Below, piece by piece: positions 55,042 through 55,057 of a DNA stretch of 64,000 nucleotides (its first letter is position 1; each line of letters opens with the position of its first letter). The stretch lies in assembly GCF_003334385.1 (NCBI RefSeq), contig NZ_QOWN01000006.1; one strand, written 5' to 3'. Origin of the DNA: Escherichia coli. GTDB lineage: Bacteria > Pseudomonadota > Gammaproteobacteria > Enterobacterales > Enterobacteriaceae. The notes under the pieces were generated by a model. That model saw only the letters and a program-made list of their open reading frames with translations. It searched no databases and had not been told where the DNA came from. A program made the translations under genes and the position numbers.

Positions 55042-55057
55042 ATGTTACCGGTAAAAT
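55042..55057. promoter_or_regulatory. GntR-like operator palindrome
   Basis: ATGTTACCGGTAAAAT, resembling GntR operator TGTTACC-N2-TAACA. Confidence 0.4.

Follow-up and report, generated by a model that had tools for sequence, protein, structure and literature searches.

Genes and signals at the zwf-edd junction

The DNA analyzed here is a 64,000-nucleotide stretch of the Escherichia coli genome, referred to as the window, and the region of interest within it carries zwf, edd, and eda, all on the (-) strand. The zwf open reading frame (ORF) lies at 55082-56557, edd at 53036-54847, and eda at 52358-52999. The zwf/edd junction, 321 nt in length, is found in 5426 of 5426 complete E. coli genomes, in which the flanking genes are annotated as zwf and edd. 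MG1655, where zwf is annotated as well, differs from the window at 1 of 601 positions, and a window coordinate x corresponds to x + 1,879,757 in that genome. On the (-) strand, zwf ends with the stop codon TAA at 55082-55084, and edd starts with an ATG at 54847 that is preceded by a Shine-Dalgarno sequence, AGGAG, at 54853-54857, of which GGAG is invariant.

Between the two genes lies a 16-bp palindrome at 55042-55057, a putative GntR-type operator that we call O1. It reads ATGTTACCGGTAAAAT on the + strand and ATTTTACCGGTAACAT on the (-) strand of the genes, and it is imperfect, with 9-nt arms that are 89% complementary. The initial annotation had picked out this palindrome, compared it with GntR operators, and placed it 25-40 nt past the zwf stop, about 190 nt from the edd ATG, and upstream of a zwf terminator hairpin at 54970-55002. 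Sequence and position are exactly as described: O1 occupies nucleotides 25-40 counted from the stop codon at 55082-55084, its near edge is 195 nt upstream of the edd ATG, and the hairpin, followed by a run of seven T, is present where it was placed. The comparison with GntR operators is borne out as well, in that the sequence is that of the GntR boxes of gntT and gntK and is kept across the Enterobacteriaceae. When scored against ATGTTA-N4-TAACAT, O1 has one mismatch and a second site inside edd, O2, has two, with the gntT and gntK boxes having one or two on the same scale. The O1 core, GTTACC(C/G)(G/A)TAAC, is the core of the paired gntT and gntK sites. Sites with at most one mismatch are expected 0.13 times per 64 kb, and two are found. 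The other one, ATGTTTTCGCTAACAT at 1304-1319, falls within the coding sequence of dmlR, and we ascribe it to chance.

The left half of O1 departs from the consensus. On the gene strand it reads ATTTTAC where the consensus has ATGTTAC (55053-55055), and the non-consensus T is conserved in nearly all loci. A pure affinity argument leaves this half unexplained. Its conservation suggests either that a sub-maximal affinity has been selected or that another signal overlaps O1, which might be + strand TAAAAT or (-) strand TTTACC. TAAAAT was also considered as part of an antisense promoter, by eye and with a position weight matrix (PWM), and was rejected as a poor and non-conserved match. Directly 3' of O1 and beyond the palindrome lies GATCT (55037-55041, (-) strand), which includes a GATC (Dam) site and is invariant in 48 distinct sequences.

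The hairpin downstream of O1 is the intrinsic terminator of zwf (54970-55002, (-) strand). Its stem pairs 55002-54995 with 54984-54977 through the arms GCCTCGTG and CACGAGGC, and is followed by T7 at 54976-54970. The predicted fold has an energy of -18.9 kcal/mol and a z score of -6.1 and leads into U7. Compensatory changes occur in 6 of the 8 stem pairs, with 33 double-change cells in the alignment where shuffles give 6.2. Of all cells, 89.5% are paired, compared with 37-64% when the partners are slid. The zwf hairpin is thus a genuine terminator.

The same stretch of DNA holds the predicted promoter of edd, P1. The -35 hexamer TTCACC (54985-54990) lies inside the terminator loop, and the -10 hexamer TACACT (54962-54967), whose bases T, A, A, C, and T are invariant, follows just past the T-run. 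The predicted +1 is an invariant A at 54955, 7 nt after the -10 hexamer, which gives a leader of 108 nt; all of these are on the (-) strand. TTCACC is found 17 nt upstream of the -10 hexamer in 54 of 61 loci, and conservation is higher in the terminator loop, GGATTCACC, and past the T-run, in ATTACACT, than in the stem. In a sigma-70 PWM scan, TTCACC-17-TACACT is the top candidate of the E. coli spacer with a score of 8.57, which is only at about the 90th percentile of the best scores of random 280-nt segments; in 38 of 61 orthologues the top candidate falls at the same place in the alignment. A peak of RpoD holoenzyme binding in SELEX was reported for the zwf-edd spacer, and the accompanying table gives TTCACC-17-TACACT for edd-eda with hexamers predicted in silico (Shimada 2014; PMC3946193). 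No transcription start was found at edd P1 by Kim 2012 in cultures grown without gluconate, where weak starts were seen inside zwf only, and the entries listed in the start-site and 3'-end tables of Adams 2021 and Ettwiller 2016 include no match. A simple promoter and terminator scanner reported neither element in this region, because the promoter scores 8/12 and the nominal terminator loop is 10 nt, both outside its thresholds.

From these predicted elements, edd P1 is physically merged with the zwf terminator: the loop provides the -35 hexamer, the T-run is the spacer, and the -10 hexamer follows. Because the promoter and the terminator are merged in this way, an operator upstream of P1 must sit between the zwf stop codon and the terminator. 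The position of O1 behind a gene and in front of its terminator thus appears misplaced only because the edd promoter is built into that terminator, and the apparent oddity of an operator behind a terminator is resolved. Further upstream, a conserved T-tract at 55013-55017 ((-) strand, about -58 to -62) stands out in an otherwise variable 35-nt stretch, with T52 and T54-T56 at 90% or more; it is possibly an UP-like or bending element. CRP and IHF sites between O1 and P1 were also considered, by eye and with the PWM, and rejected since the matches are poor and not conserved.

A locus from Escherichia sp. ESNIH1 (2240-2390) serves as a natural experiment. Here a separate zwf terminator (-17 kcal/mol) precedes O1. 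The promoter hairpin has lost its stem, and its folding energy has decayed to -3.6 kcal/mol (z = 0.2). O1, the -35 hexamer, the T-run, the -10 hexamer, and O2 are all retained. Since O1 is kept there despite a separate zwf terminator upstream of it, O1 belongs to the edd promoter and not to zwf.

The initial annotation also pointed to a second inverted repeat nearer edd. This repeat is present as an 11-nt perfect match, TGACTGAAACG at 54952-54962 and CGTTTCAGTCA at 54913-54923, and in its full length it is confined to Escherichia. The 3' arm ((-) strand; CGTTTCAGTCA on the + strand) can also pair with a third copy at 54892-54903. The repeat was rejected as a GntR site: its promoter-proximal arm is a box for Cra (FruR) and is not GntR-like. 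The box, ACTGAAACGTTTTT at 54947-54960 ((-) strand), spans -5 to +9, overlaps the 5' arm, and matches the Cra/FruR consensus RSTGAAWCSNTHHW exactly, one of 3 such matches in the window as against 0.6 expected. The further two lie at 6153-6166 and at 57044-57057, the latter inside an ORF (56895-57764) that adjoins zwf. The Cra box over the predicted +1 would explain both the conserved block CTGAA(A/G)CGATTTTGC and one arm of the inverted repeat. Repression of edd by Cra has been described (Ramseier 1995; later reviews and datasets), and the conserved CTGAAACG over +1 fits the published motif, gcTGAAtCGaTTCAgc, as does the box of edd P1 as a whole. The Cra sites at edd-eda have been published as overlapping or following the RNA polymerase site. 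This known regulation concerns the second inverted repeat rather than O1, and only 36 of the 61 loci retain the element CTGAA[AG]CG.

An RNA hairpin formed by the second inverted repeat or by the leader was likewise rejected, as no consensus structure emerges and the E. coli leader folds with z = -1.4. Two leader motifs recur in many genera, GCGTTTCAGC at about 54915-54925 (about +33) and GGACAGATAAATT at about 54865-54880, before the Shine-Dalgarno sequence; they form no conserved RNA structure.

Conservation of O1 and its partner site in edd

For comparison, one genome per species was scanned with the Edd protein, which yielded 80 loci. In 60 of them zwf precedes edd; these come from Escherichia, Citrobacter, Klebsiella, Enterobacter, Kosakonia, Buttiauxella, Cedecea, Atlantibacter, Mangrovibacter, and others. 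O1 is found 197-220 nt before the edd ATG in all of these zwf-edd loci (n = 60) except one (L024), in which the left half has more than two mismatches (ATGTTTAC) and the core TTACCGGTAAC is kept. Among 48 distinct sequences from the Enterobacteriaceae, the O1 core TTAC.GGTAACATGATCT is invariant, and the flanks vary freely over the 12 nt before the core and about 35 nt after it. Within E. coli, identity of at least 99% across 36 nt around O1 is seen in 5284 of 5426 genomes, compared with 3099 for a 36-nt control in the leader. In two divergent strains, the single-nucleotide polymorphisms spare O1, the -35 and -10 hexamers, and the core of O2. On these comparisons, O1 is a real, deeply conserved candidate for a GntR site upstream of the edd-eda promoter, at which we infer GntR binding from the sequence.

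O2 is a partner site that was absent from the account of the initial annotation. It is a second GntR-type operator, TTGTTACGCGTAACAA, at 54820-54835 ((-) strand), inside codons 5-9 of edd, and its center is at +128.5. A perfect palindrome of 20 bp, AATTGTTACGCGTAACAATT at 54818-54837, includes it. O2 is present in 60 of 60 zwf-edd loci, 12 nt past the edd ATG. By chance, a second site with two or fewer mismatches would fall within 300 bp of O1 with a probability of about 0.02.

The codons under O2 are unusually uniform. Synonymous positions are frozen, with TTA at codon 6 in 59 of 59 sequences, GTA at codon 8 in 59 of 59, and ACA at codon 9 in 57 of 59; other invariant residues of Edd (R11, R15, S16, R20, and L24) are each encoded by two to four codons. 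The only variable base of O2 (CGC or CGG) is the center of the palindrome. O2 is thus a constraint at the level of DNA. In distant loci without O2, edd positions 5-9 have different residues as well as different codons, and Leu6 (TTA) occurs only in lineages with O2.

The distant loci comprise 20 from other Enterobacterales (Serratia, Yersinia, Rahnella, Proteus, Erwinia, Xenorhabdus, and others). O2 is absent from them, and zwf is absent from the 2.5 kb upstream of edd in 19 of the 20, the exception being a locus from Enterobacillus. One or two GntR boxes lie 78-197 nt before edd in 8 of the 20 loci, and where there are two they are in tandem, 14-15 bp apart. Proteus, Rahnella, Erwinia, and Xenorhabdus are among the genera with GntR boxes before edd.

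Geometry of the operators and a model for GntR

The two operators flank the promoter. Counted from the predicted +1, the center of O1 falls at -94.5 and that of O2 at +128.5, which puts 222 bp between the two. In MG1655 coordinates, O1 corresponds to 1,934,799-1,934,814, O2 to 1,934,577-1,934,592, and the Cra box to 1,934,704-1,934,717. A nearly fixed stretch of 86-88 bp separates O1 from the -10 hexamer in 61 of 61 loci. The distance from the -10 hexamer to O2 varies, with values of 123-127, 131-136, and 145 bp, and as a result the O1-O2 spacings fall at 209-214, 218-223, and 232 bp, with none at 215-217 or 224-231. When periods of 5-20 bp were tried, the best fit was obtained at 10.5-10.75 bp (R about 0.5, Rayleigh p about 0.05, calculated on 12 spacing values that are not independent of each other, with the main class still spread over 5 bp). 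The spacing classes are thus suggestive of helical phasing, with a weak signal. No third operator with four or fewer mismatches was found between O1 and O2, including over the promoter.

GntR of E. coli is a LacI-family repressor that is induced by gluconate. Taking conservation and geometry together, we infer that O1 is probably the upstream (distal) operator through which GntR controls the gluconate-inducible P1, and that it acts together with O2. A dimer at -94.5 would be too far upstream to occlude RNA polymerase alone, and for this reason cooperation with O2 is proposed. The co-conserved O2 and the fixed upstream geometry point to cooperative repression from two sites, most simply by a 222-bp loop around P1. 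In the proposed mechanism, GntR dimers on O1 and O2 would most likely bind cooperatively and loop out P1. O2 may additionally block the elongating polymerase as a roadblock. Gluconate would release GntR, and the Cra (FruR) box over +1 would serve as a second, independent repressor input.

What could hold such a loop together is constrained by the protein itself. GntR (331 aa) aligns to positions 1-316 of a 358-position profile of the LacI subfamily and therefore lacks the LacI-type C-terminal tetramerization segment, so that the two sites would have to be bridged by contacts of the GalR kind or with the aid of another protein. A more specific version of the model takes the zwf-edd junction as a module of terminator, promoter, and operator with fixed geometry, in which dimeric GntR closes a 222-bp loop to edd codons 5-9 and most of the insertions and deletions tolerated come in steps of about 10 bp. 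We regard this version as possible and rather doubtful.

Several other readings of the conserved palindrome have been weighed against control of P1 by GntR from O1 and O2. O1 may overlap a second, upstream promoter (TTTACC-17-CAGATT, or GTAACA-17-TAGAAC, whose -35 hexamer is in O1), which GntR would occlude; the transcript, starting at about 55013-55020, would have to pass the hairpin, and the latter would serve as an attenuator in the leader. These candidates rank second and fourth by PWM score in the E. coli spacer, GTAACA-17-TAGAAT is the top candidate in six loci (the L004-L013 group), and TTTACC gains in resemblance to a -35 hexamer from the non-consensus T in the left O1 half. Nevertheless, the scores of 6.09 and 5.84 do not reach 6.9, the median of the best scores in random segments, the -10 hexamers are not conserved beyond Escherichia and Citrobacter (CAGCAA, CAGTCA, or CCAAAG stands there in other genera), and Shimada 2014 (PMC3946193) gives TTCACC-17-TACACT only. 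Such a transcript would also meet a strong terminator (-18.9 kcal/mol and U7), and an upstream promoter is unlikely on balance. Alternatively, O1 alone might be a roadblock at the end of zwf, which would limit read-through into edd or interference with P1 and require no loop. Roadblocking by LacI-family repressors is an established mechanism, and O1 is inside the transcribed 3' UTR of zwf in E. coli. There is little to be said for a role tied to zwf transcription, however, when a strong terminator supported by covariation already lies 40 nt downstream of O1, and when O1 is conserved in the ESNIH1 locus although it follows a separate zwf terminator there. The fixed 86-88 bp to the -10 hexamer and the co-conserved O2 also point to a role linked to the promoter, and we give the roadblock a low probability.

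Which protein binds is a separate matter. IdnR (GntH), the closest paralogue of GntR (402 bits), or another LacI-family protein could be the main occupant of the site. This would be compatible with binding by GntR, as both proteins share the box, but it is GntR that is established as the gluconate repressor, and control of edd P1 is said to be gntR-mediated; predominance of another protein is therefore very unlikely. The conserved block might instead be an RNA element of the zwf 3' UTR, such as a stability element or the seed of a small RNA derived from the 3' UTR. The 3' UTR (116 nt) does fold with z = -6.4, it has a conserved U-rich tract followed by a hairpin and U7, as is typical of Hfq-binding RNAs, and the invariant block runs 5 nt past the palindrome (GATCT). 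Against this, there is no significant match in Rfam (E = 0.66), and the 8-bp stem that would enclose O1 (ATCTGCGC at 55028-55035 with GCGCAGAT at 55073-55080) occurs in E. coli only, other Escherichia species being without it. Moreover, the block is a DNA palindrome of the gntT and gntK box type with a partner in edd, and it follows a terminator in the ESNIH1 locus, which together make an RNA element highly improbable. Finally, the palindrome could be a functionless chance match, of which the dmlR site is an example. With 0.13 matches expected, a core that is invariant in 48 sequences while its flanks vary, low polymorphism of O1 within E. coli, and a partner site at a distance of 222 bp (p about 0.02), this reading has next to no probability and is effectively refuted by the conservation data.

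Relation to known gluconate systems and loops

The proposed control of edd P1 by GntR through O1 and O2 can be compared with the other operators of the same repressor. The GntR operators of gntT (Peekhaus & Conway 1998) have the same box as edd, ATGTTACCCGTATCAT and ACGTTACCCATAACAA. There too the two operators are distant, 141 bp apart, and the downstream one is close to the start codon, like O2. The two arrangements differ in that the upstream gntT box overlaps a predicted -10 hexamer, TATCAT, whereas no edd box touches the promoter (O1 being at -94.5), and in that the downstream gntT box is in the leader whereas O2 is inside the edd coding sequence. The tandem operators of gntKU (Izu 1997; Tsunedomi 2003), ATGTTACCGATAACAG and CAGTTACCCGTAACAT, share the repressor and the box as well. 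They overlap, 13 bp apart, in contrast to the edd boxes of the Enterobacteriaceae, which are split and lie 209-232 bp apart. The tandem layout of gntKU is also seen upstream of edd in Rahnella, Proteus, and one Serratia locus.

The proposed arrangement at edd resembles the loops of gal (OE/OI, with GalR and HU) and lac (O1/O2/O3), in which operators of a LacI-family repressor flank a promoter that they do not cover. As in those systems, one operator is inside the first structural gene. The spacing at edd gives a weak signal that is compatible with helical phasing. The putative edd loop would be 222 bp as compared with 113 bp in gal, and GntR lacks the LacI tetramerization segment.

Control of edd P1 is reportedly mediated by GntR and responsive to gluconate. 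Both this control and the repression of edd by Cra are long established, and taking O1 for a GntR operator is a correct reading of a known, already well-studied system. If the loop is true and has not been previously described for edd, GntR would have a repressosome of the GalR kind, and the N-terminus of Edd (Leu6) would be a clear case of protein sequence that an operator has shaped. The looping geometry and the operator in the coding sequence are the only points that deserve modest experimental interest.

The analysis also yields a map of the edd-eda P1 region at the level of coordinates, running from O1 through the terminator and the promoter within it to the Cra box, the leader, and O2; this map is useful for annotation and for re-engineering flux through the Entner-Doudoroff pathway. 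A search of the literature for sequences of this region returned recombineering primers only, and one published promoter swap kept both O1 and O2. A natural disruption of the region is found in E. coli ETEC6334 (NZ_CP122604.1), where IS200C is inserted inside the terminator T-run at a point equivalent to about 54972-54976 of the window. The insertion splits the -35 from the -10 hexamer of edd P1 by several hundred bp, and as a result the induction of edd-eda by gluconate may change in this strain.
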